The notes below the pieces were generated by a model. That model had not been told where the DNA came from. It ran no database searches and saw only the letters and a program-made list of their open reading frames with translations. Position numbers and translations under genes: made by a program. From assembly GCF_047305125.1 (NCBI RefSeq), contig NZ_CP138977.1: a stretch of 24,000 bases of DNA. One strand, given 5' to 3'. Shown piece by piece: positions 1,298-24,000 of the stretch. Source of the DNA: Prochlorococcus marinus str. MIT 9201 (GTDB lineage: Bacteria > Cyanobacteriota > Cyanobacteriia > PCC-6307 > Cyanobiaceae). How positions within the stretch are numbered: the stretch's first letter is position 1; each line of letters opens with the position of its first letter.

Positions 1298-2158
1298 TTG
1301 AAATTACTTTTTAACCTAAATTTTAAATTACTTACTGGAGCAATTTTTATTTTTCTTGCAATTCTATTTGACGCTAATACTCCAATTAAATCAGAAACTT
1401 GTGAAGAAAATCCAGAAACTTTTGCAACTAGTTGTTTTAAAACACCAGTGACCTACAAAACAAGAGTTTATGAACTTGGTTTTTGTAAATCTGACCCTTT
1501 ATCAGGCACTACTGGGACGGGAATTAATGTAACCTCGAATCACGTGATTGATGAAACGAGTTGTGTTCCAACATTTATTTCAGATTCCGGAAGTCTTGTT
1601 GACCTTTCGACAATTGGAGCATCTCAAATTCTAGACGGAACTAATATATCACCGCCATCTGGAACCTACCCATTTGCGTACATAAAAGTAAGCAATACAT
1701 TTGTACTTAAAGGAACTCAATTAGTCAATGGTGTGCCTTTTTATTCCAGTTCAGATGGAACTGCCACTAAACTTTTGTCAGAATATGTTGAATGGAATAA
1801 TACGGTTATTGATTTTGAAAAAGGAACAGAATGCGAACCTCTATCCAATAACAGGATGATGGCAGGTGCAGAAACTTATACAAGTGGTATTACAGGAACT
1901 ATGAAAGCCTTGCTCTCACATATTAGTGATGAAAAAATTGTTGCAACAACTCCTGATGATTGTGGTATTTCAAATCGTATTTATGCCAGTTTTAAACCAA
2001 CAAATCCTGTAATTATTACAGATTCCACTAAAGGTTTAGAAGTATTATTTTCTATAAAAAATACTGGCTTAAGTGTTGTTCCATGGAGTGGACCAAATGA
2101 TCTTGAAGTGGGATATTTTTCAACTGGACCAATTTTGCCTAAGTTTCAAACTTTTTAA
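1298..2158 (+). CDS. Secreted or envelope Cys-containing protein; orphan member of the 'partner' family also found at 21234..22151 and 23398..>24000
   Basis: ORF track (TTG start). Hydrophobic N-terminal signal or anchor. Shared motifs with the two paralogues: TP-x-[YF]-x-T-[RK]-[VI]-Y-x-[LV]-x-[FL]-C-x-S-x-P, [FY]YS[ST]SDG, and a C-terminal P-x-F-[QS]-T-F. Confidence 0.7.
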   Translation: MKLLFNLNFKLLTGAIFIFLAILFDANTPIKSETCEENPETFATSCFKTPVTYKTRVYELGFCKSDPLSGTTGTGINVTSNHVIDETSCVPTFISDSGSLVDLSTIGASQILDGTNISPPSGTYPFAYIKVSNTFVLKGTQLVNGVPFYSSSDGTATKLLSEYVEWNNTVIDFEKGTECEPLSNNRMMAGAETYTSGITGTMKALLSHISDEKIVATTPDDCGISNRIYASFKPTNPVIITDSTKGLEVLFSIKNTGLSVVPWSGPNDLEVGYFSTGPILPKFQTF

Positions 2159-9350: not shown

Positions 9351-9356
9351 TAATTA

Positions 9357-10078: not shown

Positions 10079-10083
10079 ATTTT

Positions 10084-10179: not shown

Positions 10180-10546
10180 TTTTAAAAACCAATATTGTAT
10201 TTAGGATTCGTAATAAAAATAATTAGATTTAAAACAAAGTTTACAGGTAAATTTATAGGCTTCAAAAGTAGTAAAGCCATGCCCTTAGAAACGTTAAAAC
10301 CTTTATTCAAGAAAGTCATCAAAACCTATGTGAAAGTTTTATTACTATTCAAGCCAAGATAACACTTCTATGATTAACAACCAAATTAGATATTGGTTAT
10401 TTTAGTAAAAACCATCCTGATAGTTTGCTTTCAAGATTTCTTAATTCATGCATTATTAACAAATTTCTATTTTTAAAATTCTCTAGCGCAATATTAAATA
10501 AAAATCTGTGCTCAATAATTGTGGATAAATTGCCGGCAAAATATGC

Positions 10547-10960
10547 TTAGTTGAAAGGTGATGTGTTATTGGTAGGAGCTATTAGCAAGATTTCAAAAAT
10601 TATCCCAGTAAGGGCAATAGGTAAAACCCAAATACCAATAAATCTATGATCAAAAAATCTCAAATGATCGTTACCCTTGAAAACACTTCTCAAAGCAGTA
10701 AATAGTGTCTCTGGTTGCTTATATGTTGGACCATTTTTAGAGGGAGAATATGGTTTAACAAAAGCTGATGATGATGAAAACTTTACTAACTTTTTAATGA
10801 AAAAAATTGGCAACACCCATATAGCAACAAATCTACCACCTAACCATTGCCTCGCATTAGGAAGGGCATACTCTTTTATAGATTTATTCTCTGGCATTCC
10901 AGACTCTAAATCTCTATAAATATTTTCTAAAGAATCTTTATTATTTAATTCATTAATCAT
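10547..10960 (-). CDS. Hypothetical membrane protein with an internal repeat (137 aa)
   Basis: ORF track. The repeated segment is GGRFVAIWVLPIFFIKKL / DHRFIGIWVLPIALTGII. Preferred over the antisense ORF 10677..10919. Confidence 0.55.
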   Translation of the reverse strand: MINELNNKDSLENIYRDLESGMPENKSIKEYALPNARQWLGGRFVAIWVLPIFFIKKLVKFSSSSAFVKPYSPSKNGPTYKQPETLFTALRSVFKGNDHLRFFDHRFIGIWVLPIALTGIIFEILLIAPTNNTSPFN

Positions 10961-11259
10961 TAAATTAGCTTGTTAATTTAAATGATTCTAATATAGTAAA
11001 TTCTCTAAAAGTTAAATATTTAATAAAAATATTCCTAACTACTAAAATAACTAAAACGTAGTTAGAAATATTTTCGTTGGCTAGGTTCATAAAGACGGAA
11101 TCTATACCGTTGCAGATTCGCCAAATATCTACATATTCTTTATAAATAAAAAAATCTTTTTTAAAAAGTAAATAATATACAAGTGGATAGATATTTTTTT
11201 AATTAAAAAAGTTTATTTTTTAATCCCAAATTTATATTATTTCTTATTTAAAATATTTA

Positions 11260-11298
11260 AACCTCATTTTCTAAGATTGCGAAAAAGAAAATGAGGTT
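11260..11298. other. Perfect 12-bp inverted repeat (AACCTCATTTTC-N15-GAAAATGAGGTT)
   Basis: Read directly from the sequence. It lies in an ORF-poor ~500-bp stretch, and a second 7-bp hairpin AGTAGAT-N9-ATCTACT sits at ~11345-11367. Confidence 0.5.
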
Positions 11299-11449
11299 AA
11301 AGGGAGGTTCTCATTACAAACCGTACTTATCAAAGCTAGCGGTTAGTAGATTGCCCTAATATCTACTCCTATATTTATATAATGAATTTCTTAATTTAGA
11401 AAGATTAATTTTATACAAATAAGTGTTTAATATTTTATTTAATTATTAT

Positions 11450-11548
11450 TTAGTAAAGGCTAATTAATGCACTTGCTATGCTTATTGAAAGATGGAAAAA
11501 AGCGAAAAGAGAAACTGCAAAAAATAAACACTGTTCTATTGGAATCAT
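11450..11548 (-). CDS. Small hydrophobic peptide, 32 aa (MIPIEQCLFFAVSLFAFFHLSISIASALISLY)
   Basis: Manual translation. Downstream of 11583..11768 on the same strand. Confidence 0.3.
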   Translation of the reverse strand: MIPIEQCLFFAVSLFAFFHLSISIASALISLY

Positions 11549-11582
11549 GGCATTTAAATAAATAAAAATTGATGAAATTAAA

Positions 11583-11768
11583 TTAATTTTTTGTTAAAAA
11601 GATATTTTCCAGAATATAACTTTCTTCAATTGATTCATTTTTTTGAGTCATTTTTTTTGACAAATTATTTGTTGTATTAAAAGCACCCCATTTTCTAAGC
11701 CAATATAAGGTATAGAAAAAAGCAATAATAAAAGGAGCACCTACAACTAAGTATCTTATATCCATCAA
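11583..11768 (-). CDS. Small membrane protein (61 aa); N-terminal paralogue of 11778..12074
   Basis: ORF track. MMDIRYLVVGAPFIIAFFYTLYWLRKWGAF matches [29 protein letters not shown]. Confidence 0.5.
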   Translation of the reverse strand: MMDIRYLVVGAPFIIAFFYTLYWLRKWGAFNTTNNLSKKMTQKNESIEESYILENIFLTKN

Positions 11769-11777
11769 AATACCAAA

Positions 11778-12074
11778 TTAATAAGATTTAAACTGCATGG
11801 CCAAAATAGCACCTAAAAAGAAAACAGTAGGAATGCCTAAAGCGTTTACAGCTGCTGTTCTGACAGTAAAAACAGGATAACCTTCTGGAGGTCTGCCAGT
11901 AGCAGGAACTAGGGCAGTATCATCCCATACCTGATAGTTTTTAAAAGGAGCTACTCCCTTTTTTGGTAGTCCTAGTGGTGTCAATCTAAATACATCCCAT
12001 CTACCTAACCAAAAAACTGTAAATATCCATGAAAATACTATTGGTGTAATGACAAGTACGACTCTAAAATCCAT
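11778..12074 (-). CDS. Conserved-looking two-TM membrane protein (98 aa), function unknown
   Basis: ORF track. N- and C-terminal TM helices with a Pro/Gly-rich loop ([25 protein letters not shown]). No confident family assignment. Confidence 0.6.
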
Positions 12075-12300
12075 TTCTGTAAAAACAATAATTAATTTGG
12101 TAATTATTCTGCCCTTTTTAAATTAATAATTGATTAGATAATTAACTTATATTTATAGAAAAACACTTAATAACATTATTTTTAATCATTAATCACAAAT
12201 AATTATGATTAATTGATTATTTTTTTGTATATTTTTTTAAATAAAAATATTTGAATATTTACTTTGATGTAGATTAATTTTAATTAAAAACTAAAAAAAT

Positions 12301-12666
12301 ATGGAAACTTTTAGATTTTTACTTTTTGGAATCGCAGGAGTAAGTGTAGTATTTTGGGCGGCAGTCATAGCATTGTGGCATACTTATATGTTCCCAAAAT
12401 TCTTTAATGAAGATAAAGTTTTAAATTCAGTTATCAATCAAGAGGTCAATGTCTCAACTGAACCCATTTTAGGTAGCTTAGTTAATAGTGAAAATTTTAA
12501 AAGTAGAGATAAATATTCAATGAAAAATTTAGTTGTAGCCGATTTTTCATCAAGGAATGATTTCAAATTAAATAAACTTTATACAACTGTAATGATTGGA
12601 GTTACTTTCGCAAGTTTTATTTTTCTCACTTATGGATTAAGCAGTTCAATAACAACAGTAAGTTAA
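12301..12666 (+). CDS. Hypothetical two-TM membrane protein (121 aa)
   Basis: ORF track; no family recognised. Confidence 0.5.
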   Translation: METFRFLLFGIAGVSVVFWAAVIALWHTYMFPKFFNEDKVLNSVINQEVNVSTEPILGSLVNSENFKSRDKYSMKNLVVADFSSRNDFKLNKLYTTVMIGVTFASFIFLTYGLSSSITTVS

Positions 12667-12667
12667 T

Positions 12668-12751
12668 ATGGAATCTATATATGTAATTGTTTTTATTACT
12701 TGTTTCGTTTATTTAATTTTTGACTCATTCAAAAATATAAATATTAAATAG
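12668..12751 (+). CDS. Possible small hydrophobic peptide, 27 aa (MESIYVIVFITCFVYLIFDSFKNINIK)
   Basis: Manual translation. The ATG is 2 nt after the stop of 12301..12666. Confidence 0.25.
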   Translation: MESIYVIVFITCFVYLIFDSFKNINIK

Positions 12752-13181
12752 TTTGCTATTGTTTTTTTCCAGCTAATAAAATTTTTCTTCTTATATAAAA
12801 GAATAATAATGTAGTTATTATCATTACAGGTGGATGAAATGATATTGAATTTAAATATTCGAAGTAATCAAATGATTCCAAAATTTTTGCTCATAATTTT
12901 CTTAAACTATATTTCATCTCTCAAATTTTTATTGATTTAAATAGATCAATATCTTGTATAAAATGCTAGTTAAATTTTTCTTAACTAATATTTTCGCACA
13001 AATTACCGACAAATCATTTATTTAAATAAATAAATCCAACATAGATTTTTAGAAATACATGGAGGTTTAGATTGAAATACTTTGTTCTACTTTTTGCCTT
13101 TGAATTACTAAAAGAGATTTGGCTAAAAAAACAAAACATTTATTCCTTAGTATTTGAAATATTTTTTTAGATATTTATTCT

Positions 13182-13421
13182 TTACTTGTTAATTATTTGA
13201 TCAAGGTATTTGGCGTACAAAACATTATTCATTCGTTGGCTCATAGGAAGATAAGTTAGCAACATTAGAATTTCTTTCTCATCATTTTTAGAAATTACAT
13301 ATTGAGAATTTTGTTTCTTAATCCATAACTTACATTCACTAAATGAGGGGTAATTTGGCTCGGTATCAATAATCCAATCAGCGAGTCGATTAAATAATTC
13401 TTTTTTAACTTCTTTATTCAA
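13182..13421 (-). CDS. Hypothetical protein (79 aa), TTG start overlapping the upstream stop
   Basis: ORF track. The start codon TTG overlaps the TGA of 13418..13489 (TTGA). Confidence 0.5.
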   Translation of the reverse strand: MNKEVKKELFNRLADWIIDTEPNYPSFSECKLWIKKQNSQYVISKNDEKEILMLLTYLPMSQRMNNVLYAKYLDQIINK

Positions 13422-13489
13422 ATCAAAAAAATAATTAATATAGTTCCAATACTAAAAATCAAGCTCCAACCCTGCGAGTTGATAGTCAT
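13418..13489 (-). CDS. Small hydrophobic peptide, 23 aa (MTINSQGWSLIFSIGTILIIFLI)
   Basis: Manual translation. Paralogue of 9467..9538. Confidence 0.55.
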   Translation of the reverse strand: MTINSQGWSLIFSIGTILIIFLI

Positions 13490-13502
13490 TTAATTTACTT
13501 CT

Positions 13503-13571
13503 TTAGTAATGCAAAAGTAGCCAAAACAATCCGCATTCGCAAATAATCCCTTCCAATACTATTGCCGACAT
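13503..13571 (-). CDS. Small hydrophobic peptide, 22 aa (MSAIVLEGIICECGLFWLLLHY)
   Basis: Manual translation. Paralogue of 8035..8118. The 3' flanking DNA (TACTAAAGrAr TAAATTrAATGACTA) is also conserved between the two loci. Confidence 0.5.
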   Translation of the reverse strand: MSAIVLEGIICECGLFWLLLHY

Positions 13572-13590
13572 TAGTTTAGTAAGAGTTTCA

Positions 13591-13872
13591 TTAACAATAC
13601 AAAGCTACTGTTTGATCTAAATCTGCACAAGGTTCAATAGTAAATTCCAATAACTCTTTCCAAGGTCTCCATTGTTTCCAAATGATTTCTAGAGAATTAG
13701 CATCTACAACAGAGTAACCATTGCCATGTTGAGGTAAGAAAATCCAAGATTTAACTTCATAACCTTCTGGTCTATTTTGTGGCCCTCCTTTGTCGTACCA
13801 TTCCTTTAGCATTTTTGCTCCCTTTTCTTGGGCATTTGCATCATTGAATTTATAAGAAATTAGAAACAACAT
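13591..13872 (-). CDS. DUF3303-like small protein (93 aa)
   Basis: ORF track. The pattern ...WYDKGGP..PEGYEVKSW......W.PW.ELLEFTIEPC resembles my memory of the DUF3303 family. Tentative. Confidence 0.55.
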   Translation of the reverse strand: MLFLISYKFNDANAQEKGAKMLKEWYDKGGPQNRPEGYEVKSWIFLPQHGNGYSVVDANSLEIIWKQWRPWKELLEFTIEPCADLDQTVALYC

Positions 13873-13876
13873 AAAT

Positions 13877-13921
13877 AAAAAAAAGGAGCTAATTGCTCCT
13901 CATTTTAGATCGACTGTCAAT
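13877..13921 (-). promoter_or_regulatory. Composite junction element copy 7
   Basis: Minus strand: ATTGACAGTCGATCTAAAATGAGGAGCAATTAGCTCCTTTTTTTTATTTATG. It differs from copy 3 at one base over ~44 nt, by eye. Confidence 0.6.
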
Positions 13922-14071
13922 AATAGAAGCATTATTTTGACTAAAAATTGCAATAAAAAAGTTTTTCATAGGGTTTGACGATTTTTAATCATATAAATTT
14001 TCGATCAAAAAAATAAATAATCTTATTCTTCATCAAGATATCCTAAAGTATAAATAATAAATATTTTATTT

Positions 14072-14374
14072 ATGAGGAAATTATTTGCTGCATTCACCGT
14101 TTTCTTAAGTACGTTATTCATTTCTTCAAATTTAAATGCATCATCATTTAACTTGAAAAACGAAACTAATTATCTTACTAGTAATCTTTTAATTTCTTAT
14201 GGCGGCGGCGGCGGCGGTGGTGGTGGCGGAGGGAAGAATTCCGCAAAAGGCAGAGCGAAAGAAAAAGCAAAACTTTTATTTAAGAAAAGACAAGCAGCAA
14301 AAAAAGTTTCTGAAGGTTTACCTTTAACAGAAGAAGAAAAAAAGATCCTTTATTTTGATGAAATTGGAGATTAA
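14072..14374 (+). CDS. Secreted Gly-run / Lys-rich small protein (100 aa)
   Basis: ORF track. Signal peptide MRKLFAAFTVFLSTLFISSNLNA, a run of 11 Gly, and a basic tail. Confidence 0.6.
   Translation: MRKLFAAFTVFLSTLFISSNLNASSFNLKNETNYLTSNLLISYGGGGGGGGGGGKNSAKGRAKEKAKLLFKKRQAAKKVSEGLPLTEEEKKILYFDEIGD
14201..14233 (+). repeat. (GGN)11 trinucleotide run: (GGC)5(GGT)3 GGC GGA GGG
   Basis: Read directly from the sequence. A GC-rich microsatellite inside an AT-rich gene. Confidence 0.9.
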
Positions 14375-14395
14375 AAAAATTTAAAGGTCATAAAT

Positions 14396-14433
14396 AGAGG
14401 GTTTTATCCCTCTATATTAGATCAGCTTTTAAT
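14396..14433 (-). terminator. Composite junction element copy 8 (block degenerate: ATTAAAAGCTGATC); hairpin between convergent genes
   Basis: Minus strand: ATTAAAAGCTGATCTAATATAGAGGGATAAAACCCTCT. It lies between the stops of 14072..14374 (+) and 14443..14832 (-), so it is a likely bidirectional terminator. Confidence 0.5.
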
Positions 14434-14442
14434 ATTACCTAA

Positions 14443-14832
14443 TTAAAGTCTGCTGTAGCCTAATTTTGACTGAAAAACTTTAAAGGAAACACCTGTTCCT
14501 TTCATTACTTCGAGACATTTATCCCCAACTGTTCCATATACTTCAACAGTAAAATCATCAGCAAGTTTTGGATGCTCTTTTAAATATTCACCTATTGCTG
14601 GATTGGCCAAGTGAGCGATAAAAGCATCATCATTTTTATAAGCCTCAGACCACACAAAGTTCAGAGGATTTTCTGGATCCTGATCAAAAGTATGATGTAA
14701 CATTCCTGGCTCAACAGCCTTAACGGCTTTATCTGTTTTATCTGCAAGTTCTAAATACTCAGAAACTTTATTTTCTTTTACTGTGATTTTTGCTAAAAGA
14801 ATAAAAGGGGTATCTGCTCCGAAATTTGTCAT
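14443..14832 (-). CDS. ABM-domain (antibiotic biosynthesis monooxygenase-like, dimeric alpha/beta barrel) protein
   Basis: 129 aa. ...MLHHTFDQDPENPLNFVWSEAYKNDDAFIAHLANPAIGEYL fits the ABM pattern (H..D....f.f.E.y.d..A...H). Confidence 0.7.
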   Translation of the reverse strand: MTNFGADTPFILLAKITVKENKVSEYLELADKTDKAVKAVEPGMLHHTFDQDPENPLNFVWSEAYKNDDAFIAHLANPAIGEYLKEHPKLADDFTVEVYGTVGDKCLEVMKGTGVSFKVFQSKLGYSRL

Positions 14833-14871
14833 GAATAAAAATAGTTTTAATTATATTATTAATTTTTTAAT

Positions 14872-14914
14872 AAAAAAGAGGGTTTTATCCCTCTATGTTA
14901 GATCTACTGTCAAT
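14872..14914 (-). promoter_or_regulatory. Composite junction element copy 9
   Basis: Minus strand: ATTGACAGTAGATCTAACATAGAGGGATAAAACCCTCTTTTTT. Two mismatches relative to copy 1. It lies upstream of 14443..14832. Confidence 0.6.
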
Positions 14915-15135
14915 TATTAAAAATACCTCCTACGAGGTCTTCTAAAAAAATTGTCATTTTTAATGAAATTTGCTTTTATGAGTGAAGAGTTATTTTTATT
15001 ATGCAAATCTCATTTTTTGCAAAAGTAGTTTTTTTTAAATCTTTATTGTATTTCTGATTTATCAATCAAAAATAATATTTTGAGAAAAGTAATGAATAGA
15101 GCTAACAGAGCTAAAATTTTTAAACTTCCCAATTA

Positions 15136-15249
15136 ATGGAATTTTTAACTAATTTCTGGAATAATCAACCCAATACAGTTATTGGAATAGGTGTGGCAAT
15201 ATTTGTGTTATTAGGGATTTATATATCTTTACTCCAGACATACCAATAA
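15136..15249 (+). CDS. Small membrane peptide, 37 aa (MEFLTNFWNNQPNTVIGIGVAIFVLLGIYISLLQTYQ)
   Basis: Manual translation. Paralogue of 9357..9470. Confidence 0.6.
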   Translation: MEFLTNFWNNQPNTVIGIGVAIFVLLGIYISLLQTYQ

Positions 15250-15250
15250 G

Positions 15251-15568
15251 TTAGTTAATTATCTTTTTAATTTTTTCTAGATTCCATTTATCAAATATTA
15301 ATTTCATTTCTCTTTCGTAGTATCTTACTTTCTTAGCAAAAGGAAGTTGTTGAATAATTATCCCAAAGGGAAATTTAAAGAAAGAAGAGACATAAACAAT
15401 ATAAAACTCGACAAATGAAGGCTTTGGTGGGAGAGGTAAATTTTTTATATATGCCCAATCAATGCAGGGTTTTAGTTGCTTATCACTAGCGATAATATTT
15501 TTTTTACATCTCCACCAAGAGAATAGATAAATGCAAATAAAAATCGGTAACGGAAGAAGTCGCAACAT
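15251..15568 (-). CDS. Hypothetical membrane protein (105 aa)
   Basis: ORF track; no family recognised. Confidence 0.45.
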   Translation of the reverse strand: MLRLLPLPIFICIYLFSWWRCKKNIIASDKQLKPCIDWAYIKNLPLPPKPSFVEFYIVYVSSFFKFPFGIIIQQLPFAKKVRYYEREMKLIFDKWNLEKIKKIIN

Positions 15569-15598
15569 TAATTAAAAAGTTATTTCTTCAAGAGTTAT

Positions 15599-15796
15599 TT
15601 ATTCAGGATAAACAAACATCATACCTATCCCTGATATTTCTTTATCTTTTTTAAGAGAAAATTTTTTATTAGAATTCACGTAACCTGCATAATCTCGGGC
15701 ATCTGAAATTTTTTTATGTAATTCATCAGATATTCCAGCATGAACTGAAGTAGATAAAGTAAGTGCAGATATTGGTGGGAATAGCGGTCTTTTCAT
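15599..15796 (-). CDS. Hypothetical small secreted protein (65 aa)
   Basis: ORF track. Signal-like N-terminus. It starts 4 nt after the stop of 15800..16105. Confidence 0.4.
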   Translation of the reverse strand: MKRPLFPPISALTLSTSVHAGISDELHKKISDARDYAGYVNSNKKFSLKKDKEISGIGMMFVYPE

Positions 15797-15799
15797 TTG

Positions 15800-16105
15800 T
15801 TAATCACAACAATCGTCCTTTGTTAATGAAGCGGTCCAAGAGGTTTCCTCCATTGTTGACAAGTCAACTCTATGAGTTGCCATCCAGTCACCATTGGCTT
15901 CCACAAACTTTTGAACATTGCCTTCTGGAGCTTGATGAATAACAATTATTTTTTGAGGATCTTCCTTGCTTACTCCTCTGAAAAGTGGCTTAATATCAAA
16001 TTCTGAATGCCTTTTATCTGCTTCCGCACTATCAAATATTGCAGCCCATTCATCGAAAGTGCTTTCAATTTTAAAAGTAAACACGGAGGTAACTGAACAA
16101 GACAT
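15800..16105 (-). CDS. Small soluble protein (101 aa); paralogue of 19500..19778
   Basis: The track ORF 15800..16147 is trimmed to ATG 16103-16105 because the 5' extension reads through element copy 10. MSCSVTSVFTFKIESTFDEWAAIFDS aligns with MSIETTVFTFKISVPFEEWAAVYDS. Confidence 0.65.
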   Translation of the reverse strand: MSCSVTSVFTFKIESTFDEWAAIFDSAEADKRHSEFDIKPLFRGVSKEDPQKIIVIHQAPEGNVQKFVEANGDWMATHRVDLSTMEETSWTASLTKDDCCD

Positions 16106-16148
16106 AAAAAAGGAGCTAATTGCCTCTAATTGTAGATCGACTGTCAAT
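16106..16148 (-). promoter_or_regulatory. Composite junction element copy 10 (chimeric hairpin arms)
   Basis: Minus strand: ATTGACAGTCGATCTACAATTAGAGGCAATTAGCTCCTTTTTTATG. The 5' arm is of the AGAGG type and the 3' arm of the GCTCCT type. Confidence 0.6.
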
Positions 16149-16162
16149 CAGATGAATATTAT

Positions 16163-17107
16163 TTAAGATGCCCAATCGCAAGGTTTAGAGTATTTTTTAT
16201 AAATTTCAGCATGACCCTCTTGAACTAGCAGTTGTTGAAGATTCTCTCCATTAAGACTTAATTCACCTACGGTCCTTCCATACTTATCCTCAGTCACCCT
16301 ACGAATTGATACTTTCTCGCCCTTAATCATTTCATTTAAGAAATTTTTTGCCGCTATTGCCTCATTTGGCTTTGCTCTTTTCCCTTTTATTTCGGGAGTA
16401 TCGATACAAGCTAATCTTATTTTTTCGCCTTCACTTGAAGTACAGGTATCTCCGTCATAACAATCTTTGATTATAATTTCTCCATTCTCCGGTCTATTTG
16501 ATTTTCTACCAAGAGCTTCGCAGGCTTCCCCATCATTATCTCTATCAAGATAAGCGTGTCCTGCTTGGAGAAACTTTTGAGCTTCTGACCAATCACCAAT
16601 GTCTCCACATCTTTGTTTCTCTCTTTCTGATAAGGGGACTTTCTTACATTCTGGAAAGTCAGAAGCTTCAGACCCTTCATAAATACATGATATTTCACCA
16701 CTAGTGAAGTTATAGAAAAAAGAGGGTTGTTTTTTTAAATCTTCAGGAATTATTGATACAAGTGAAAAATTCTCATTACCAATACAGTTATTGCTTTCCT
16801 CATTATCAAATTCATAACCAATTAACTTTGAAGGGGTGAATGTTAACTCTCTTCCCAGAGAATTATTACTTTCGCACTCGATTTTTATATTTAAGATTGA
16901 ATTTGCAGCTATTACTTTCTCTGCTTTTTGGATAACTTCAAGAAATCTAGGTAAAGCAATAATTCCAAGGATTGAACATACTCCAATAACAGTTATCAAC
17001 TCAATTGAGCTAAAACCTACGTTTGATTTAGTTAATTTTTTAAATAAATACAACAAAAAAGGAATTTTTCTTATTAGTTTAAATCTGCTTTCAATTAAAT
17101 TAATCAT
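16163..17107 (-). CDS. Pilin-like N-terminus + Excalibur Ca-binding domain + staphylococcal-nuclease (SNase/thermonuclease) domain
   Basis: SNVG|FSSIELITVIGVCSILGIIALP gives the G/FxxxE motif plus a hydrophobic helix. CGDIGDWSEAQKFLQAGHAYLDRDNDGEACEAL is Excalibur-like. DGDT...IRLACIDTPE...EDKYGRTVGEL...LVQEGHAEIY matches the SNase motifs DGDT, RL.giDtPE and DkYGR. The true start may be an internal TTG giving a shorter leader. Confidence 0.8.
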   Translation of the reverse strand: MINLIESRFKLIRKIPFLLYLFKKLTKSNVGFSSIELITVIGVCSILGIIALPRFLEVIQKAEKVIAANSILNIKIECESNNSLGRELTFTPSKLIGYEFDNEESNNCIGNENFSLVSIIPEDLKKQPSFFYNFTSGEISCIYEGSEASDFPECKKVPLSEREKQRCGDIGDWSEAQKFLQAGHAYLDRDNDGEACEALGRKSNRPENGEIIIKDCYDGDTCTSSEGEKIRLACIDTPEIKGKRAKPNEAIAAKNFLNEMIKGEKVSIRRVTEDKYGRTVGELSLNGENLQQLLVQEGHAEIYKKYSKPCDWAS

Positions 17108-17160
17108 ATTGTTAAAACTAGTAAGAGTTTTTCTATAATTTCGCGGCTTAACCCCAAAGA

Positions 17161-17883
17161 CTAGTCAAATGTTTTTGAAGAGTTTTCTAGTAATAAATTT
17201 AGTTCTAAAAGTTCTTTTTTAGTAAATTCACGATATTTTCCTATTGGTACGTCTAATTTAATATTCATAATTCTTACACGCTTTAATGAAAGTACTCTGT
17301 AGCCTAATGACTGACACATTCTCCTAATCTGACGATTAAGTCCTTGCGTGAGTATGATCTTGAATTTTTTTGGTCCCAACTTTTCTACAAAACAATTCCT
17401 AGTTATGGTGTCTAATATTTCAACTCCATTACTCATCCTTTTAATAAACTCTCTACTAATCAAACGATTAACACTTACAATATATTCTTTTTCATGATTA
17501 TTTCTTGCTCTTAGTATTTTATTCACGATATTTCCATCATTAGTTAAAAAAATTAAACCCTCGCTGGGCTTATCCAATCTTCCAATAGGAAAAATTCTTT
17601 TAGGATATTTAATGAAATCTATAACATTATTGGGTTCTACTCTTGTATCAGTTGTGCAAACAATTCCAACAGGTTTATTAAAGGCTAAGTATATATTTTT
17701 TTGTTTTGATAATTTTTCTATTCTTTGACCTTTGACTTCTACTTGGTCATCTTCATCTACCTTGGCTCCAATCTTTGATATTTCCCCATTAATAGTAACT
17801 TTTCCTTCTTTAACTAATCTATCTGCAACTCTTCTAGAACAATAACCAACTTCGCTTAAATATTTATTTATCCTGGTAGCCAT
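17161..17883 (-). CDS. Pseudouridine synthase, RsuA/RluB/RluF family, with an N-terminal S4 domain
   Basis: RINKYLSEVGYCSRRVADRLVKEGKVTINGE is the S4 domain, and PIGRLDKPSEGLIFLTNDG carries the catalytic Asp motif. Confidence 0.9.
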   Translation of the reverse strand: MATRINKYLSEVGYCSRRVADRLVKEGKVTINGEISKIGAKVDEDDQVEVKGQRIEKLSKQKNIYLAFNKPVGIVCTTDTRVEPNNVIDFIKYPKRIFPIGRLDKPSEGLIFLTNDGNIVNKILRARNNHEKEYIVSVNRLISREFIKRMSNGVEILDTITRNCFVEKLGPKKFKIILTQGLNRQIRRMCQSLGYRVLSLKRVRIMNIKLDVPIGKYREFTKKELLELNLLLENSSKTFD

Positions 17884-17924
17884 ATTGGGTATTTCTTTTT
17901 ATCTCCCTAAATTATTTAATTAAT

Positions 17925-17953
17925 TACTTCTTATTTTAGATCAGCTGTCAAAC
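17925..17953 (-). promoter_or_regulatory. Composite junction element copy 11 (block + TAAAAT; hairpin decayed)
   Basis: Minus strand: GTTTGACAGCTGATCTAAAATAAGAAGTAATTAATT. It lies ~45 nt upstream of the pseudouridine synthase ATG. Confidence 0.5.
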
Positions 17954-18016
17954 TAAGTGAATATTAAAGACATTAGATTTAGATTAATATTAACCAGGGA
18001 TTTTTGGAGAGCGCAC

Positions 18017-18274
18017 CTAACTCTCTTTTTTTTTCCAAACTTCTTCAATTTTAGTCCATCCTTGGGAAAGTAATCTTTCATAAATTTCTCTTGCCAAATC
18101 TATATCTACTGAAACTGTATTTGTCATTACAGGTGGTTCTTTTCCGGATATGTCCAATATTTTTCCAGTATCCACAAACATATACTCGAAGACACCACTT
18201 ATACTCTTATCGTTTCTCATAAATCTCTTCACTTCTGTTCTGTTTGAATTAATCAACCAGTAAGATTTAGACAT
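18017..18274 (-). CDS. Hypothetical 85-aa protein (paralogue of 9538..9795)
   Basis: ORF track. See 9538..9795. It lies 32 nt downstream of the SRAP gene on the same strand. Confidence 0.6.
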   Translation of the reverse strand: MSKSYWLINSNRTEVKRFMRNDKSISGVFEYMFVDTGKILDISGKEPPVMTNTVSVDIDLAREIYERLLSQGWTKIEEVWKKKES

Positions 18275-18306
18275 TAATTAGGGGATAGAGTTAGTATGCA
18301 TTCAAT

Positions 18307-18945
18307 TTAAAACAAACTCATTTGATTAGTTTCTTTTTTGTTAATATTTTCTACTAACCATCCATCAGGTGACCAACCCATCATAATTGGAAGTAAACCA
18401 TTTAATTCAACAGTATCTTTAACCTGCTCAGTCCATTGCTCCTCTAAACCATTGGGAACAACAACAGGCATGCGATGATGAAAAGGTTTAATTAATTCAT
18501 TTGGTTCAGTTGTTAAGATACAGCAACTCTCTAACTCAGCGCCATCTGGAGAGGTCCACTTGCTCCAGATTCCTCCTAACCAAAACGTTTCATAATTCTC
18601 TTTTCGAATACGATATTTTTTTTCAAAAAACCCACTTGCTGGTATTAAACACCTTTTATATTTCCAACTTCCACTAAATAATCTTTTTTCTTCTATGCTT
18701 TCTGATCTTGCATTAAATGGTCTTGGCCTTTTTTTGTCAAATGGGTCGTAAGTCCAAGGTGAAATAAACCCCCATGACATGAAAGTAGTCTTAATTCTTC
18801 CTTCGTTTTTGACTACAAGTACAGGATCAGTTGGTCTTATTAAATTTTGAATATCATATCTAGTTTGAAGTCCCTTTGGATAATCTTGTTTCAGAATCTT
18901 TGGTAAATCATCAAACTTGGTTTTCAGCTCAAATCTTCCACACAT
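18307..18945 (-). CDS. SOS-response-associated peptidase (SRAP / YedK / DUF159) family protein
   Basis: The N-terminal MCGRF (catalytic Cys2) is the family hallmark, and the 212-aa length is typical. Confidence 0.9.
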   Translation of the reverse strand: MCGRFELKTKFDDLPKILKQDYPKGLQTRYDIQNLIRPTDPVLVVKNEGRIKTTFMSWGFISPWTYDPFDKKRPRPFNARSESIEEKRLFSGSWKYKRCLIPASGFFEKKYRIRKENYETFWLGGIWSKWTSPDGAELESCCILTTEPNELIKPFHHRMPVVVPNGLEEQWTEQVKDTVELNGLLPIMMGWSPDGWLVENINKKETNQMSLF

Positions 18946-18976
18946 TTATTTTTTAAAATCTTTTTAAAAACTCTTT

Positions 18977-19018
18977 AAAAATCGAGCTAATTATTCCTAT
19001 TTTAGATTGATTGTCAAT
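18977..19018 (-). promoter_or_regulatory. Composite junction element copy 12 (decayed hairpin)
   Basis: Minus strand: ATTGACAATCAATCTAAAATAGGAATAATTAGCTCGATTTTT. This is clearly a decayed AGGAGCAATTAGCTCCT-type copy. It lies upstream of the SRAP gene. Confidence 0.55.
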
Positions 19019-19144
19019 ATTCAATAATTAAAAAATATAAATCCTTTTTGATGGTCATAAAAGGGTCTTCATTTAATAGTTAAGAGAACATGTAGATATT
19101 GAAAAGTTTTCTCAAATTTTATTTCAATCTTACACAATTAATCT

Positions 19145-19350: not shown

Positions 19351-19390
19351 TCAACTATTTTCAACTATTTTCTACTATTTTCTACTATTT
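19351..19390. repeat. 10-bp tandem repeat x4 (tcaactattt x2, tctactattt x2)
   Basis: Read directly from the sequence. It overlaps the 3' end of the small ORF 19365..19454. Confidence 0.9.
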
Positions 19391-19454
19391 TTAAAAATAA
19401 GTTTGTGTAGTTTGCAAAAACTAATAAAAGCAAGAGAAATGTATTAATTGTCAT
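19365..19454 (-). CDS. Possible small hydrophobic peptide, 29 aa (MTINTFLLLLLVFANYTNLFLKIVENSRK)
   Basis: Manual translation. DNA-level similarity to 7385..7516 (shared tttaaaaataagtttgt and aactaataa.agcaa). Confidence 0.3.
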   Translation of the reverse strand: MTINTFLLLLLVFANYTNLFLKIVENSRK

Positions 19455-19499: not shown

Positions 19500-19778
19500 T
19501 TAAAAGTAGCTCGATATAACAGTTGAATCATAAATATGACCAGCTCCCTCAATTAATGGTTTAACTGCTGGATCTTCAAACATAGCAATTGATTTACCTT
19601 CCTCACCCTGCTCAATAAGAATTACACTAGTTGGATCATCTTTCTTTACACCTTTGTATAAGCAAATAATTCCACGTTCTTTATTCATTTGTATATTTTC
19701 TTCACTGTCATAAACCGCAGCCCATTCTTCAAAAGGGACACTAATTTTGAAAGTAAAAACAGTAGTTTCAATTGACAT
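19500..19778 (-). CDS. Small soluble protein (92 aa); paralogue of 15800..16105
   Basis: ORF track. N-terminal alignment with 15800..16105. Confidence 0.65.
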   Translation of the reverse strand: MSIETTVFTFKISVPFEEWAAVYDSEENIQMNKERGIICLYKGVKKDDPTSVILIEQGEEGKSIAMFEDPAVKPLIEGAGHIYDSTVISSYF

Positions 19779-19972: not shown

Positions 19973-21126
19973 TTTTTAGTGTTTTGGTAACAATCGCTAG
20001 ATTTTATGTCTCAAATTATGTTAACTTCTTAAAAATTTAAAAATAAGTGAAATTACCTAAAGCCCTCTCTCTTATTCCCTTAGCTTTTGGTTCTATTCTG
20101 TCTGTTTCTGCCCAAGAATATAAATTTGATAATATCAAATTTGATCAGGTTGAAGACTCTCAGAATACATATCAACCAAAAGATAAATTAGATGAATACA
20201 TAATTAAAGGAGCAACTTACTCTACAAAATTTGTTCCTTTAATGAACGATGGCTCTGACGGAAGTGATTACACAAACATGATGAGCAAAGATGCCAAGAG
20301 ATTATTAGTTGATAAGGGATTTAATTTTGTTAATTCCACCGCTAATAGTCAAATCCAGAAAATTCCATTCTTTGCTCAAACAACAGTTAATTTCTCTGGC
20401 GGAACAGAATCAGATACCAGTTTCTCAGTTAATAGCTTGATGAAACTTGGAGAACTTGCAAAAGATGACGAAGGCGATCTTAAAACACTCGTCTTCTCTC
20501 AAGCAAGATTTGCAACTGCAACAGATGCAGAAGGCTCCACAGTTAACTTAGGTTTAGGTATTAGAAATCGTCCTGACGATGTATCGATGGTTGGAGGTAA
20601 CGTTTTCTTAGACTACAGAATGACAGACTACAGCGATGCTCATAGCAGACTTGGTCTTGGTGGAGAATATTTTTGGAAAGATTTTGAATTTAGAAATAAC
20701 TGGTATATGGCAATTACTGATGAAAAAGATGTAACTATTGATGGGAGTTCTTTTGTAGAAAGAGTAGTACCTGGATGGGATCTAGAAGTTGGCTACAGAT
20801 TACCAAGCAATCCAGAACTTGCTTTCTTTGTTAGAGGTTTTAATTGGGACTATAAATATACTCAAGACAACTCAGGTTTAGAAGGTGCAGTTAGCTGGCA
20901 AGCAACTCCTCATGTTGGTTTAGAAGCTTTTGTTTCTAATGAAATTTCTGCTGCATCTACAACTGCTAATACTGACCTACCAGGAACAGATGAAACTTTC
21001 TTTGGTTTAAGAATGAACATTACTGGTAATCCTGTGAAGTTTGAGAAATCAAATTATAAGAAGAACATGATTACTCAAATGACTCAGCCTGTAAAACGTA
21101 AATATGATGTTTTACTTGAAAGAGCT
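19973..21126 (+). repeat. 1154-bp direct repeat, copy 1 (offset 2184 bp to copy 2)
   Basis: Side-by-side reading found only two mismatches (19981 g/a and 20259 c/t). Identity ends abruptly after ...gaaagagct. Confidence 0.85.
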
Positions 21127-21177
21127 GCTACAGATGGCAGTGGAGTTGCTTTCCAAAATAGAGCTAAAGGGGTATAA
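20047..21177 (+). CDS. Inverse-autotransporter (intimin/invasin-type) beta-barrel domain protein with no passenger, copy 1
   Basis: GTG start immediately after an in-frame TAA gives the signal peptide (M)KLPKALSLIPLAFGSILSVSA|QE. LVFSQARFATATDAEGSTVNLGLGIRNR...GGNVFLDYRM..SDAHSRLGLGGEYFWKDFEFRNNWYM...ERVVPGWDLEVGYRLPSNPELAFFVRGFNWDY...RKYDVLLER parallels the intimin/invasin beta-domain (NlGlG.R, N.F.DY....h.RlG.G.EYWrDylk.saNgY, ERpanGwD....gYLP..PqL, RydLveR). Confidence 0.8.
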   Translation: MKLPKALSLIPLAFGSILSVSAQEYKFDNIKFDQVEDSQNTYQPKDKLDEYIIKGATYSTKFVPLMNDGSDGSDYTNMMSKDAKRLLVDKGFNFVNSTANSQIQKIPFFAQTTVNFSGGTESDTSFSVNSLMKLGELAKDDEGDLKTLVFSQARFATATDAEGSTVNLGLGIRNRPDDVSMVGGNVFLDYRMTDYSDAHSRLGLGGEYFWKDFEFRNNWYMAITDEKDVTIDGSSFVERVVPGWDLEVGYRLPSNPELAFFVRGFNWDYKYTQDNSGLEGAVSWQATPHVGLEAFVSNEISAASTTANTDLPGTDETFFGLRMNITGNPVKFEKSNYKKNMITQMTQPVKRKYDVLLERAATDGSGVAFQNRAKGV

Positions 21178-21233
21178 ATATGGACCTGCATGAATATTCA
21201 AATTTTAATTTTTTCAAAACTTCAATTAAAAAA

Positions 21234-22151
21234 ATGAAACCAAAACAATATCTCATGAAGAATATAAATTCAATTTTAATTGGATTTGGTTTATTAGGTT
21301 TTGCTTCTTTTGCAAATACCGCTAAAGCCGATGAATTCACTCCTGATAAATGTATAGATGCAATCGGAGAAAAAGTTGATGGTAAATATACAAAAACAGC
21401 TGCACAAATTAATAATCTTAATGTCTTTTTTTGTACAGAAACTCCTGAAAGATTTGAAATTACTATCCATGAATTGGGACTGTGTACTTCTCCACCTATT
21501 ACTATTACAGAAAATTCAGAAACATTTAGCAAGGATAATTGCGTCACAACAATGGCAAGTGATGGAATCGCGGCTGATTTAGCTAGTGGTCTAGTTGCTT
21601 TACCATCAATGGACGGAAGGCCTGAATCAAATACATACTCACATGCGTACATTATCATTACGAATACATTTGGATTAAGAGGTAGTGTTACCATAAAAGA
21701 TGCCAATACAGGCGCTTATAATACTTATTGCTCTATGACTGATGAAGATCAATTCGGATCTAATTCTACAGGACCTACAACTGGTGGCAGCTTATGTACG
21801 CCAGAAAATCATACGGAGATCCTAGATACTTTTGGAAGTACAGATGAAAATGGGGTTCATACTTTTGATGCTTATTTCCCTGATGAATCAATGGATGGAG
21901 GTGGTAAAGTATCAGCTCTTCTTACCAAGGGCGATGCAAATTTAACAACTGCTCAAAATCAAGGCGAGGTGGAGAGACTAATTGGCGTTTTTGAGACTAA
22001 TTCTGGTTCTCCTGTTGTTATAAATGACGCTACTAATGGTTTAGAAATGGAATTAACAGTTACTGATATTGGTTACGGAATTGCATTTGGCGGCGGTGAA
22101 CCTATCTATTTCGGATCAATGCCATTTAAACCTATATTTTCTACTTTTTAA
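21234..22151 (+). CDS. Secreted Cys-containing 'partner' protein A (family of 1298..2158)
   Basis: The track ORF 21180..22151 is trimmed to ATG 21234 (or 21255), giving the signal peptide MKPKQYLMKNINSILIGFGLLGFASFANTAKA|DEF. Family motifs IHELGLCTSPP and the C-terminal PIFSTF are present. Confidence 0.7.
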   Translation: MKPKQYLMKNINSILIGFGLLGFASFANTAKADEFTPDKCIDAIGEKVDGKYTKTAAQINNLNVFFCTETPERFEITIHELGLCTSPPITITENSETFSKDNCVTTMASDGIAADLASGLVALPSMDGRPESNTYSHAYIIITNTFGLRGSVTIKDANTGAYNTYCSMTDEDQFGSNSTGPTTGGSLCTPENHTEILDTFGSTDENGVHTFDAYFPDESMDGGGKVSALLTKGDANLTTAQNQGEVERLIGVFETNSGSPVVINDATNGLEMELTVTDIGYGIAFGGGEPIYFGSMPFKPIFSTF

Positions 22152-22156
22152 TCAGA

Positions 22157-23310
22157 TTTTTAGTATTTTGGTAACAATCGCTAGATTTTATGTCTCAAAT
22201 TATGTTAACTTCTTAAAAATTTAAAAATAAGTGAAATTACCTAAAGCCCTCTCTCTTATTCCCTTAGCTTTTGGTTCTATTCTGTCTGTTTCTGCCCAAG
22301 AATATAAATTTGATAATATCAAATTTGATCAGGTTGAAGACTCTCAGAATACATATCAACCAAAAGATAAATTAGATGAATACATAATTAAAGGAGCAAC
22401 TTACTCTACAAAATTTGTTCCTTTAATGAACGATGGCTCTGATGGAAGTGATTACACAAACATGATGAGCAAAGATGCCAAGAGATTATTAGTTGATAAG
22501 GGATTTAATTTTGTTAATTCCACCGCTAATAGTCAAATCCAGAAAATTCCATTCTTTGCTCAAACAACAGTTAATTTCTCTGGCGGAACAGAATCAGATA
22601 CCAGTTTCTCAGTTAATAGCTTGATGAAACTTGGAGAACTTGCAAAAGATGACGAAGGCGATCTTAAAACACTCGTCTTCTCTCAAGCAAGATTTGCAAC
22701 TGCAACAGATGCAGAAGGCTCCACAGTTAACTTAGGTTTAGGTATTAGAAATCGTCCTGACGATGTATCGATGGTTGGAGGTAACGTTTTCTTAGACTAC
22801 AGAATGACAGACTACAGCGATGCTCATAGCAGACTTGGTCTTGGTGGAGAATATTTTTGGAAAGATTTTGAATTTAGAAATAACTGGTATATGGCAATTA
22901 CTGATGAAAAAGATGTAACTATTGATGGGAGTTCTTTTGTAGAAAGAGTAGTACCTGGATGGGATCTAGAAGTTGGCTACAGATTACCAAGCAATCCAGA
23001 ACTTGCTTTCTTTGTTAGAGGTTTTAATTGGGACTATAAATATACTCAAGACAACTCAGGTTTAGAAGGTGCAGTTAGCTGGCAAGCAACTCCTCATGTT
23101 GGTTTAGAAGCTTTTGTTTCTAATGAAATTTCTGCTGCATCTACAACTGCTAATACTGACCTACCAGGAACAGATGAAACTTTCTTTGGTTTAAGAATGA
23201 ACATTACTGGTAATCCTGTGAAGTTTGAGAAATCAAATTATAAGAAGAACATGATTACTCAAATGACTCAGCCTGTAAAACGTAAATATGATGTTTTACT
23301 TGAAAGAGCT
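22157..23310 (+). repeat. 1154-bp direct repeat, copy 2
   Basis: See 19973-21126. Confidence 0.85.
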
Positions 23311-23367
23311 ACTAATGATGGAGGGCCGGCTAGTTTTACAGTCAGGGTCAGTGCCCAGGGTTCTTAA
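22231..23367 (+). CDS. Inverse-autotransporter beta-barrel domain protein with no passenger, copy 2
   Basis: Identical to copy 1 through ...KYDVLLERA. The tail then differs: TNDGGPASFTVRVSAQGS here versus ATDGSGVAFQNRAKGV in copy 1. Confidence 0.8.
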   Translation: MKLPKALSLIPLAFGSILSVSAQEYKFDNIKFDQVEDSQNTYQPKDKLDEYIIKGATYSTKFVPLMNDGSDGSDYTNMMSKDAKRLLVDKGFNFVNSTANSQIQKIPFFAQTTVNFSGGTESDTSFSVNSLMKLGELAKDDEGDLKTLVFSQARFATATDAEGSTVNLGLGIRNRPDDVSMVGGNVFLDYRMTDYSDAHSRLGLGGEYFWKDFEFRNNWYMAITDEKDVTIDGSSFVERVVPGWDLEVGYRLPSNPELAFFVRGFNWDYKYTQDNSGLEGAVSWQATPHVGLEAFVSNEISAASTTANTDLPGTDETFFGLRMNITGNPVKFEKSNYKKNMITQMTQPVKRKYDVLLERATNDGGPASFTVRVSAQGS

Positions 23368-23397
23368 ATTTTTAAAATCTAAATTACATTTTTTATT

Positions 23398-24000
23398 ATG
23401 AAAAAACTTTTTTTATCTTCCGCTTTATTAGCAGCCTCTTTAATTATTCCTTCATCAGTTAAAGCACAAGATGGGCCAGGACAGTCTTTAGGTAATACTG
23501 TAAATTCATGCAGTACATCTTCTGGTTCATGCCCTATAACTCCAACCAAATTCAGTACAAAAATATATAGAGTGGCATTATGTACATCTAATCCTATGGA
23601 GACAGCAGCCGCAGAAGCGGGTCTTCCAGTAGACTGGGATAGCAACGGTTGTGTGGATGTTTATAACAGCGAAGGTGGAGAAGATACTGGAGATATTTTC
23701 AGCGATACTGGAACAACTCTTTCAGCAGAAAATATTACAATTCCTAGTGAGGGCGAATATAGTTACGTCGCAGCTTTATTCGATAAAGAATTTAAAGTAG
23801 CAAGCCATCACCAGGTCTATAACGCTGGAGACGATACTATACCACCTCTTGGAGAAAGATATTATTCAACAAGCGATGGTGGGGCAGCCGTTGGACCAGC
23901 AGAATCAGCAGAACTAATAGCAGGAAGTTTTGAAACTTTTATGCCACAAATAGCTTGTGAAAATGGATCTGCCCTTGCAGATAGGAGTGCTACAACCGAA
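23398..24000 (+). CDS. Secreted Cys-containing 'partner' protein B (partial; runs off the window end)
   Basis: Manual translation gives 201 codons with no stop. It is absent from the track because there is no stop in the window. Signal peptide MKKLFLSSALLAASLIIPSSVKA|QD. Family motifs TPTKFSTKIYRVALCTSNP, EYSYVAALFDKEFKVAS and YYSTSDGG are present. Confidence 0.7.
   Translation, partial: MKKLFLSSALLAASLIIPSSVKAQDGPGQSLGNTVNSCSTSSGSCPITPTKFSTKIYRVALCTSNPMETAAAEAGLPVDWDSNGCVDVYNSEGGEDTGDIFSDTGTTLSAENITIPSEGEYSYVAALFDKEFKVASHHQVYNAGDDTIPPLGERYYSTSDGGAAVGPAESAELIAGSFETFMPQIACENGSALADRSATTE

Follow-up and report, generated by a model that had tools for sequence, protein, structure and literature searches.

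Introduction

ZirT/ZirS of Salmonella is a two-partner inverse autotransporter in which secretion of ZirS was shown experimentally to be ZirT-dependent (PMC2270342). Two-partner inverse autotransporters were proposed as a group by Heinz et al. 2016 (PMC4943183), and ZirU, SinH/SinI, Yfr4/Rat-like and Ahy1 were inferred to be two-partner systems (PMC4943183, PMC3008723). The partners in all of these systems, including ZirS, resemble Ig-type passenger domains (PMC4943183, PMC3008723). The intimin/invasin barrel is composed of 12 strands, with a helical turn located at the periplasmic side and an extended linker that runs through the lumen and brings the C-terminus to the cell surface (PMC3467248). 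Here, two tandem gene pairs are described from a 24,000-nucleotide stretch of DNA of Prochlorococcus marinus str. MIT 9201 (contig NZ_CP138977.1; G+C about 30%), referred to below as the window. Each pair contains an inverse-autotransporter (type Ve) barrel gene that ends in a short variable tail, or stub, in place of a passenger, and a second gene for a member of a very diverse family of partner proteins with their own signal peptides. Judged from the sequences and by analogy, the chances are about even that the pair is a ZirT/ZirS-like two-partner type Ve module, in which the barrel would export or anchor its cognate partner and the stub would give specificity.

Like ZirT, ZirS and ZirU, the Prochlorococcus pair has an intimin/invasin-type barrel gene followed by separate genes for Sec-dependent partners, and the ability of one barrel there to serve more than one partner recalls the barrel-partner-partner (B-P-P) loci found here. 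However, ZirT bears immunoglobulin-superfamily passenger domains of its own, to which ZirS and ZirU are homologous, whereas the Prochlorococcus barrel has only a stub of 10-20 residues. The Prochlorococcus partner also lacks an Ig/Big signature and a fold match in the PDB, is hypervariable and apparently exchanged as a cassette with the stub, and the function of the pair is a prediction from sequence. The Ahy1 operon of Aeromonas hydrophila likewise begins with a barrel-only gene, followed by genes thought to give the passenger function, and all products of the Yfr4 operon of Yersinia frederiksenii bear signal peptides (PMC3008723). Unlike the Prochlorococcus partners, the downstream genes of these operons contain typical intimin/invasin (Int/Inv) or autotransporter passenger repeats, and neither operon has the constant/variable cassette structure. 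An initial annotation of the window had known of no characterised split inverse autotransporter of this kind, a statement contradicted by ZirT/ZirS(/ZirU), shown experimentally (PMC2270342, PMC4943183), and by Ahy1 and Yfr4, described in 2010 (PMC3008723).

Cyanobacterial Int/Inv proteins consisting of the beta-domain only, including proteins of Prochlorales, were described as cluster E by Tsai et al. 2010, whose query was gi 78779562 and for whom the genome context of other short members gave no functional clue (PMC3008723). Heinz et al. 2016, in their 'invasin_beta-only' groups (PMC4943183), and later readers of Simm et al. 2015 (PMC4365693) again meet barrel-only cyanobacterial members. These are probably the same kind of barrel protein as that of the window, but no partner was reported for them. 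The query gi 78779562 is presumably from MIT 9312. No paper on barrel-partner pairing, partner diversity or tail covariation in Prochlorococcus was found in the openly searchable literature, subscription journals lying outside that search.

With intimin and invasin themselves (type Ve; 4E1S, 4E1T), the window's barrels share a homologous beta-domain, an N-terminal signal peptide and, as the full-length Pfam match suggests, the order of short periplasmic region, barrel and linker; they differ in having neither a covalently attached passenger nor a LysM domain. Type Vb two-partner secretion (FhaC/FHA) is similar in that a barrel and a separately encoded, Sec-exported cognate substrate share one operon. 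Its barrel is, however, an Omp85 protein with POTRA domains and its substrate has a TPS domain, neither of which was found by Pfam in the Prochlorococcus pair. In pilE/pilS, CdiA-CT and Rhs systems, a conserved segment serves as the recombination handle, a variable 3' module is exchanged and orphan modules lie nearby. The variable module of Prochlorococcus differs from these in spanning a gene boundary (the stub plus a whole second gene), and no toxin/immunity or pilin function is indicated in the pair. The Prochlorococcus pair differs from the known two-partner systems in the fully passenger-less barrel and in a partner family without detectable relatives that is extremely diverse against a constant barrel; further differences are the stub that tracks the partner and the conversion tracts that define a cassette across a gene boundary.

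Passenger-less barrels within a long direct repeat

The features of the two gene pairs and of a third partner gene are as follows.

19973..21126, plus strand: repeat copy 1, the constant module of 74-nucleotide leader and barrel codons 1-360
19973..20046, plus strand: shared leader of 74 nucleotides, part of the repeat, with one mismatch
20047..21177, plus strand: barrel A, 376 amino acids, GTG start, signal-like N-terminus MKLPKALSLIPLAFGSILSVSA, PF11924 match
21127..21177, plus strand: variable tail A, codons 361-376 and stop, FQNRAKGV type; with A360, the tail after LLER is AATDGSGVAFQNRAKGV
21234..22151, plus strand: partner A, 305 amino acids, signal peptide, Cys-rich, all-beta, ending in FSTF, 56 nucleotides past barrel A
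22157..23310, plus strand: repeat copy 2, leader and barrel codons 1-360, beginning 5 nucleotides past the stop codon of partner A
22231..23367, plus strand: barrel B, 378 amino acids, residues 1-360 identical to barrel A, PF11924 match
23311..23367, plus strand: variable tail B, codons 361-378 and stop, FTVRVSAQG type; with A360, the tail after LLER is ATNDGGPASFTVRVSAQGS
23398..24000, plus strand: partner B, first 201 codons, running off the window; signal peptide, then C-x-TP-x-F...LCTS; 30 nucleotides past barrel B
1298..2158, plus strand: orphan third partner, 286 amino acids, TTG start, ending in FQTF, with no barrel upstream, between two tRNA-like repeats

Both barrels, which the initial annotation had taken for inverse-autotransporter beta-domains, were matched by PF11924 (IAT_beta) with an E-value of 1.8e-63 (215 bits against a Pfam cut-off of 22.3). 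The match extends over model positions 13-279 of 279 and protein residues 71-353. Among NCBIfam models, SinH, intimin and Inv were matched only partially and far below cut-off. The only sequence relatives in the PDB are intimin (4E1S) and invasin (4E1T), with alignments that reach the barrel core only and leave the ..KRKYDVLLER segment outside; this segment may be equivalent to the intimin/invasin linker. Among NCBI proteins, 'inverse autotransporter beta domain-containing protein [Prochlorococcus marinus]' is 98% identical. The signal cleavage region, read by eye, is MKLPKALSLIPLAFGSILSVSA/QEY.

The C-termini of barrels A and B lie just 17 and 19 residues past ..RKYDVLLER, so both proteins lack a passenger, as had been noticed from the sequence at the outset. 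The same was observed for relatives: all of the 120 best barrel homologues are 369-388 amino acids long. A barrel-anchored scan with one genome per species gave 70 loci, all from Prochlorococcus except one labelled Synechococcaceae; the barrel tails are 10-20 residues long across 66 loci, 66/66 barrels have a hydrophobic segment at the N-terminus, and 62/66 lack Cys. Directly before the tail, the Prochlorococcus barrels carry the invariant segment QPVKRKYDVLLER. Pfam found only IAT_beta in the barrel, and neither a LysM domain nor a covalent C-terminal passenger (Big/Ig, lectin or similar).

The two barrel genes belong to a direct repeat of 1154 nucleotides (19973-21126 versus 22157-23310) with two mismatches, one non-coding (at 19981, in the leader) and one synonymous (codon 71). 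Its edges are sharp, the left one lying 74 nucleotides before the barrel start codon and the right one at the exact end of codon 360. Divergence between barrels A and B begins at codon 361, and beyond codon 360 the tail codons and all downstream sequence are unrelated between the two cassettes. The leader is presumed to be the promoter and ribosome-binding-site region of the barrel gene; a consensus scan for promoter and terminator signals gave nothing above background there.

A diverse family of Cys-rich partners

Both downstream genes encode separate proteins with hydrophobic, signal-like N-terminal segments, and the gaps of 56 and 30 nucleotides agree with the spacing of 30-60 nucleotides first described. 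The start codon of partner A is backed by the N-termini of its homologues, and a signal-type hydrophobic N-terminus was found in 66/66 partners of the surveyed loci. Partner A is related to the orphan at 1298-2158 (tblastn E 2.6e-14). Its pairwise match with partner B is weak (2e-4); partner B is nevertheless placed in the family because the protein P0404 (308 amino acids), taken from our reading of the two sequences as a full-length homologue of partner B, scores 1.9e-21 in a family profile search. The earlier view of one divergent family with conserved Cys positions is thus borne out: Cys40, Cys67, Cys84 and Cys103 (partner A numbering) are kept in 86-89% of 66 sequences. Individual partners usually have 4-6 Cys. 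Further family motifs are C-x-TP-x-Y...YE-x-GLCT, RP-x-x-GTY-x-HAY and a terminal GPF-x-x-x-F.

The C-terminal F-[QS]-T-F pattern of the initial annotation was found to hold for partner A (FSTF) and the orphan (FQTF) but not as a family feature. The last residue is F or Y in 44/66 partners, and E, N, Q, D, K or S in the others, including the partner B homologues. The partners do not share the conserved C-terminal aromatic beta-signal that would mark an outer-membrane beta-barrel, since there are entire classes with E, N, Q, D, K or S as the last residue. Four to six conserved Cys would rather suit a protein that is soluble and disulfide-bonded.

In a collection clustered at 90%, partner A was found to have 271 homologues, all of them without a functional name and without a precomputed Pfam domain. 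When 1.84 billion representatives at 50% identity were searched with the family profile, 713 clusters scored E <= 1e-3, 342 of them E <= 1e-10, mostly with lengths of 260-315 amino acids. Pfam gave no match for the window's partners or for ten further family members, and no Ig/Big signature; NCBIfam gave no match for the window's partners, and the PDB contained no sequence relative of the family profile. An AlphaFold 2 (AF2) model of partner A (predicted local distance difference test score, pLDDT, 84; predicted template-modelling score, pTM, 0.81) is all-beta with about 20 strands, and Foldseek with this model found nothing in the PDB or BFVD. No homologues were found in phage genomes, PADLOC gave no hit, and PHROGs matched the barrel only, with a family of unknown function.

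One metagenomic protein of 498 amino acids, P0276, has the partner domain at residues 239-498 after about 240 residues of G-x-I-x-N-x-G-type repeats. These repeats resemble beta-helix adhesin passengers and have no Pfam match; the partner domain can thus bear an N-terminal extension.

Two-way synteny of barrel and partner genes

Adjacency of the two genes was surveyed from both sides, and the association proposed for the window was recovered each time. In an open-reading-frame (ORF) and hidden-Markov-model survey of the 70 loci, a same-strand partner-family ORF was found after 66/66 complete barrels, at gaps of -14 to 149 nucleotides; some loci are arranged B-P-P or B-P...B-P. In a partner-anchored scan of metagenomes, limited to 63 loci with at least 150 nucleotides upstream and biased toward PFKP-type partners, a barrel 3' end was observed directly upstream of the partner in 61/63, leaving one partner after another partner and one true orphan. 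A consensus scan showed no terminator-like site between barrel and partner, and none anywhere in the region either. Read-through or frameshift fusion of barrel and partner is ruled out by the varying frames and spacing and by the partner's own signal peptide.

The surroundings of the pair are variable. The neighbour genes of the window recur in only about 8/70 loci, and MIT 9302 has two barrel/partner pairs at different places; the pair therefore behaves as a unit moving between island contexts. In the three B-P-P loci L012, L054 and L058, the second partner is of a class that normally pairs with the FQNRAKG tail of the local barrel. The window's orphan, like the other extra partners, belongs to the NRAKG tail supergroup, and the nearest paired relatives of the orphan have NRAKG-type tails, like barrel A. 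Since this supergroup is the commonest, the tail match of the B-P-P loci lends the pairing weak support.

The most divergent barrel (51% identity) was found in Prochlorococcus sp. AG-363-N20 (L074, 5743-7846), where two ORFs stand in place of each gene, barrel as well as partner; the copy may be decaying, or a sequencing frameshift may be the cause. The locus L001, from a long-read assembly, is fragmented in a similar way.

Covariation of tail and partner against a constant core

The contrast between a constant barrel and a variable partner, remarked on in the initial annotation, was confirmed quantitatively, with a median pairwise identity of 0.84 for the barrel core and 0.29 for the partner, the latter from a family of 713 clusters. 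Column conservation of the barrel is 0.8-0.96 at residues 41-360 and 0.40 in the tail. Core and partner are decoupled, with a Spearman correlation of 0.18, whereas that of tail and partner is 0.71; the partial correlation of tail and partner is 0.69, a value reached by 0/999 Mantel permutations. When pairs are binned by partner divergence, core identity remains within 0.83-0.89 throughout, whereas tail identity goes up from 0.34 to 0.88.

In genomes as well as metagenomes, tail types correspond to partner classes, as listed here.

Tail F.NRAKG.: partner C-terminus ..PF.P.F..F/Y
Tail FVNRVGGS: partner C-terminus DSGPFSVTFETF
Tail DGWTARVKTK: partner C-terminus NSGDFDMSVITE
Tail FTVRVSAQGT: partner C-terminus ..VKVVPITASE

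In the window, the tail A type co-occurs with PFKP.F..F partners, and the tail B type is found also in L013 and L053, whose partners end in ..P[IV][TS]ASE.

It is quite unlikely, though compatible with part of these data, that barrel and partner are two independent envelope proteins travelling together as a mobile island cassette, with covariation reflecting linkage and breakpoint placement only. The tail adjoins the partner, breakpoints necessarily stop where homology stops, similarity between tail and partner C-terminus is absent, and the variable island contexts lie beside tRNA-like repeats. The near-absolute two-way adjacency across at least 19 partner classes and many contexts would, however, hardly persist if co-function were not selected for. 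Within superclasses the tails are also strongly kept, the FQNRAKG. tail even at 36-50% partner identity, which indicates that the tail is constrained and class-specific and not drifting; the fit of the second partners of B-P-P loci to the local tail class adds weakly to this.

Probable recombination at the cassette boundary

Exceptional within-genome barrel identity was observed in 2/9 genomes with two copies, that of the window and MIT 9302. The barrels of MIT 9302 lie about 43 kb apart and are 100% identical over 1010 nucleotides, from about codon 22 to about codon 358, whereas their partners are 27% identical; barrel pairs that similar make up 0.4% of all pairs. The identity tract ends at the ..LLER codons in both genomes, which suggests that the barrel core serves as homology for gene conversion or recombination, with tail and partner left over as an exchangeable cassette. 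The sequences thus point to the tail and partner as a cassette exchanged by recombination or gene conversion within the barrel core. In MIT 9302, repeats of about 100 nucleotides, 92-99% identical, flank both pairs (L007 12652-12753 and 8468-8568 versus L071 623-725); these could be further island elements in cassette movement.

Within partner classes, the crude NG86 method, with dS near saturation, gives ratios of nonsynonymous to synonymous substitution rates (dN/dS) of 0.18 (partner) and 0.11 (barrel). The value of 0.18 marks the partner as a maintained gene; at the same limits of method and saturation, no gene-wide positive selection on the partner was seen. The initial annotation had suggested that the partner diversifies under selection, whereas these ratios indicate purifying selection. 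The data fit purifying selection on many old partner classes, apparently exchanged as cassettes.

The same ratios bear on the possibility that the pair is a decayed classical inverse autotransporter with a split-off passenger (a pseudogene), or an artefact of assembly or duplication. Passenger-less barrels are atypical for the family, and the copies in L001 and L074 are fragmented. Yet intact ORFs of constant length occur in more than 120 independent loci, both genes have low dN/dS and each of the 66 partners has its own signal peptide. Barrel and partner also differ in frame or vary in spacing, with no fused ORF seen, and the complete genome of MIT 9302 shows the repeat pattern again. This explanation is hardly credible and is effectively refuted by the conservation data.

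Proposed function of the pair

The pair is proposed to be a two-gene unit conserved in genomic islands of high-light Prochlorococcus. The first gene encodes an outer-membrane type Ve beta-domain with a predicted lumen-crossing linker, a C-terminal stub of 10-20 residues and no passenger; given the full Pfam beta-domain match and the invariant QPVKRKYDVLLER, the tail would be a short stub that, by homology with intimin and invasin, emerges at the cell surface. The second gene encodes a protein of an uncharacterised, very diverse family, predicted to be Sec-exported, disulfide-rich and all-beta. By analogy with ZirT/ZirS, the two products may interact physically, the barrel exporting its cognate partner, holding it at the cell surface, or both, with the variable stub as the partner-specific element. 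The conserved barrel core would be the homology tract for the recombination or gene conversion that maintains diversity, and stub and partner would therefore move together as one cassette.

Several observations weigh against such an export or anchoring function. The AF2 model of the barrel, from a shallow alignment in which all sequences are at least 81% identical, has a pLDDT of 33, so that it is Pfam homology and the published topology (PMC3467248) that speak for 12 strands and for a tail at the surface. The covariation of tail and partner may be pure linkage, because the two are adjacent and exchange cannot enter already diverged sequence. A folded partner with probable disulfides would be an awkward cargo for a linker-plugged 12-strand barrel. 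Unlike ZirS and ZirU, the partner is unrelated to any passenger domain of the barrel protein, and partners without a barrel occur at 1298-2158 of the window and in L136. Mimicry by the tail of its own partner's C-terminal strand was also rejected: with tail set against partner C-terminus, the best ungapped BLOSUM score is 11.3 in own pairs, compared with 11.7 in cross pairs and 11.5 after shuffling, and 7280/9999 permutations reach the observed value.

Alternatively, the genes might form an operon in which the barrel does not translocate the partner. The partner would then be periplasmic, outer-membrane-associated or vesicle-released by another route and would at most dock to the barrel, itself a membrane anchor or a protein of separate function. 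A Cys-rich partner beside a Cys-free barrel fits folding and oxidation in the periplasm, the linker is expected to plug the barrel lumen (PMC3467248), orphan partners occur, and pilin- and type II secretion system (T2SS)-type genes lie near some loci. A T2SS-secreted invasin-like adhesin, InvL, is known (PMC9245377). On the other side, the element linked to the partner is the C-terminal stub, which by homology lies outside the cell, whereas the periplasmic N-terminal region is conserved. Pilus and T2SS genes are found in few loci (the pilin-like nuclease in 5/70), whereas the barrel is nearly always present. This arrangement is regarded as rather unlikely.

Within the proposed two-partner module, a more specific role of the stub is conceivable, if only tentatively: it might dock or guide one cognate partner class, for example by beta-strand augmentation, while conversion would hold the barrel core uniform and swap stub-plus-partner cassettes, including barrel-less reserve copies. 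If true, this would amount to a modular, antigenic-variation-like change of a major Prochlorococcus surface protein under phage or grazer pressure, and the pair would offer trans-acting type Ve secretion a natural model in minimal form.

Few routes for surface protein display are known in Prochlorococcus, and the hypervariable islands of its genome are presumed to govern how it interacts with phages and grazers. Here, a nearly invariant barrel is paired with a family of at least 713 clusters at 50% identity for which no functional annotation was found. Should the barrel export or anchor the partner, the ocean's most abundant phototroph would have in this pair a surface determinant that is both widespread and swappable. 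To research on type V secretion, the pair offers a natural minimal case, with a barrel and linker, a stub for a passenger and a partner in trans. It bears on a question standing since ZirTS, that of a folded inverse-autotransporter barrel serving a substrate encoded separately.

Genomic island surroundings

The other annotated features of the window are listed below.

2734-3099: GtrA-like gene, part of a cell-envelope modification cluster (2734-5458)
3101-4504, minus strand: DUF2079 membrane protein, same cluster
4514-5458, minus strand: family-2 glycosyltransferase, same cluster
15800-16147 and 19500-19778, minus strand: two genes, DUF3764 paralogues
16163-17107, minus strand: nuclease-like protein, 314 amino acids, with Excalibur (Pfam E 3.9e-5) and staphylococcal-nuclease (4.9e-15) domains

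The envelope-gene cluster at 2734-5458 fits a surface-related genomic island. A direct repeat of 82 nucleotides occurs four times (624-705, 1060-1141, 2430-2511 and 6451-6532) and resembles a tRNA 3' half (..GGTCGCAGGTTCGAATCCTGTCGCCCC..); the orphan partner gene lies between two of its copies. ARAGORN found no intact tRNA at these repeats, and Rfam gave only a sub-threshold tRNA hit at 1055-1110. The repeats may be attachment-site remnants of integrative island elements.

The nuclease-like protein at 16163-17107 has, by eye, a prepilin-like hydrophobic N-terminus (..GFSSIELITVIGV..), and its homologues were found near the barrel/partner pair in four other loci. In L001 the pair has pilin, T2SSE and prepilin-peptidase genes in its vicinity, and in L003 an N_methyl (pilin-type) gene.

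An element of 44-60 nucleotides occurs ten times in 5673-19030 (for example at 7348-7391, 13890-13933 and 16117-16160) and consists of a G+C-rich hairpin beside the conserved 17-mer TTAGATCGACTGTCAAT. On the minus strand its order is 17-mer, hairpin, T-run, and it resembles a conserved terminator module placed behind small minus-strand genes. Three further repeats have two copies each: 9352-9468 versus 15131-15247 (79%), 8015-8083 versus 13483-13551 (84%) and 7417-7479 versus 19371-19433 (76%). Together with the DUF3764 paralogues, these suggest repeated small cassettes across the island.

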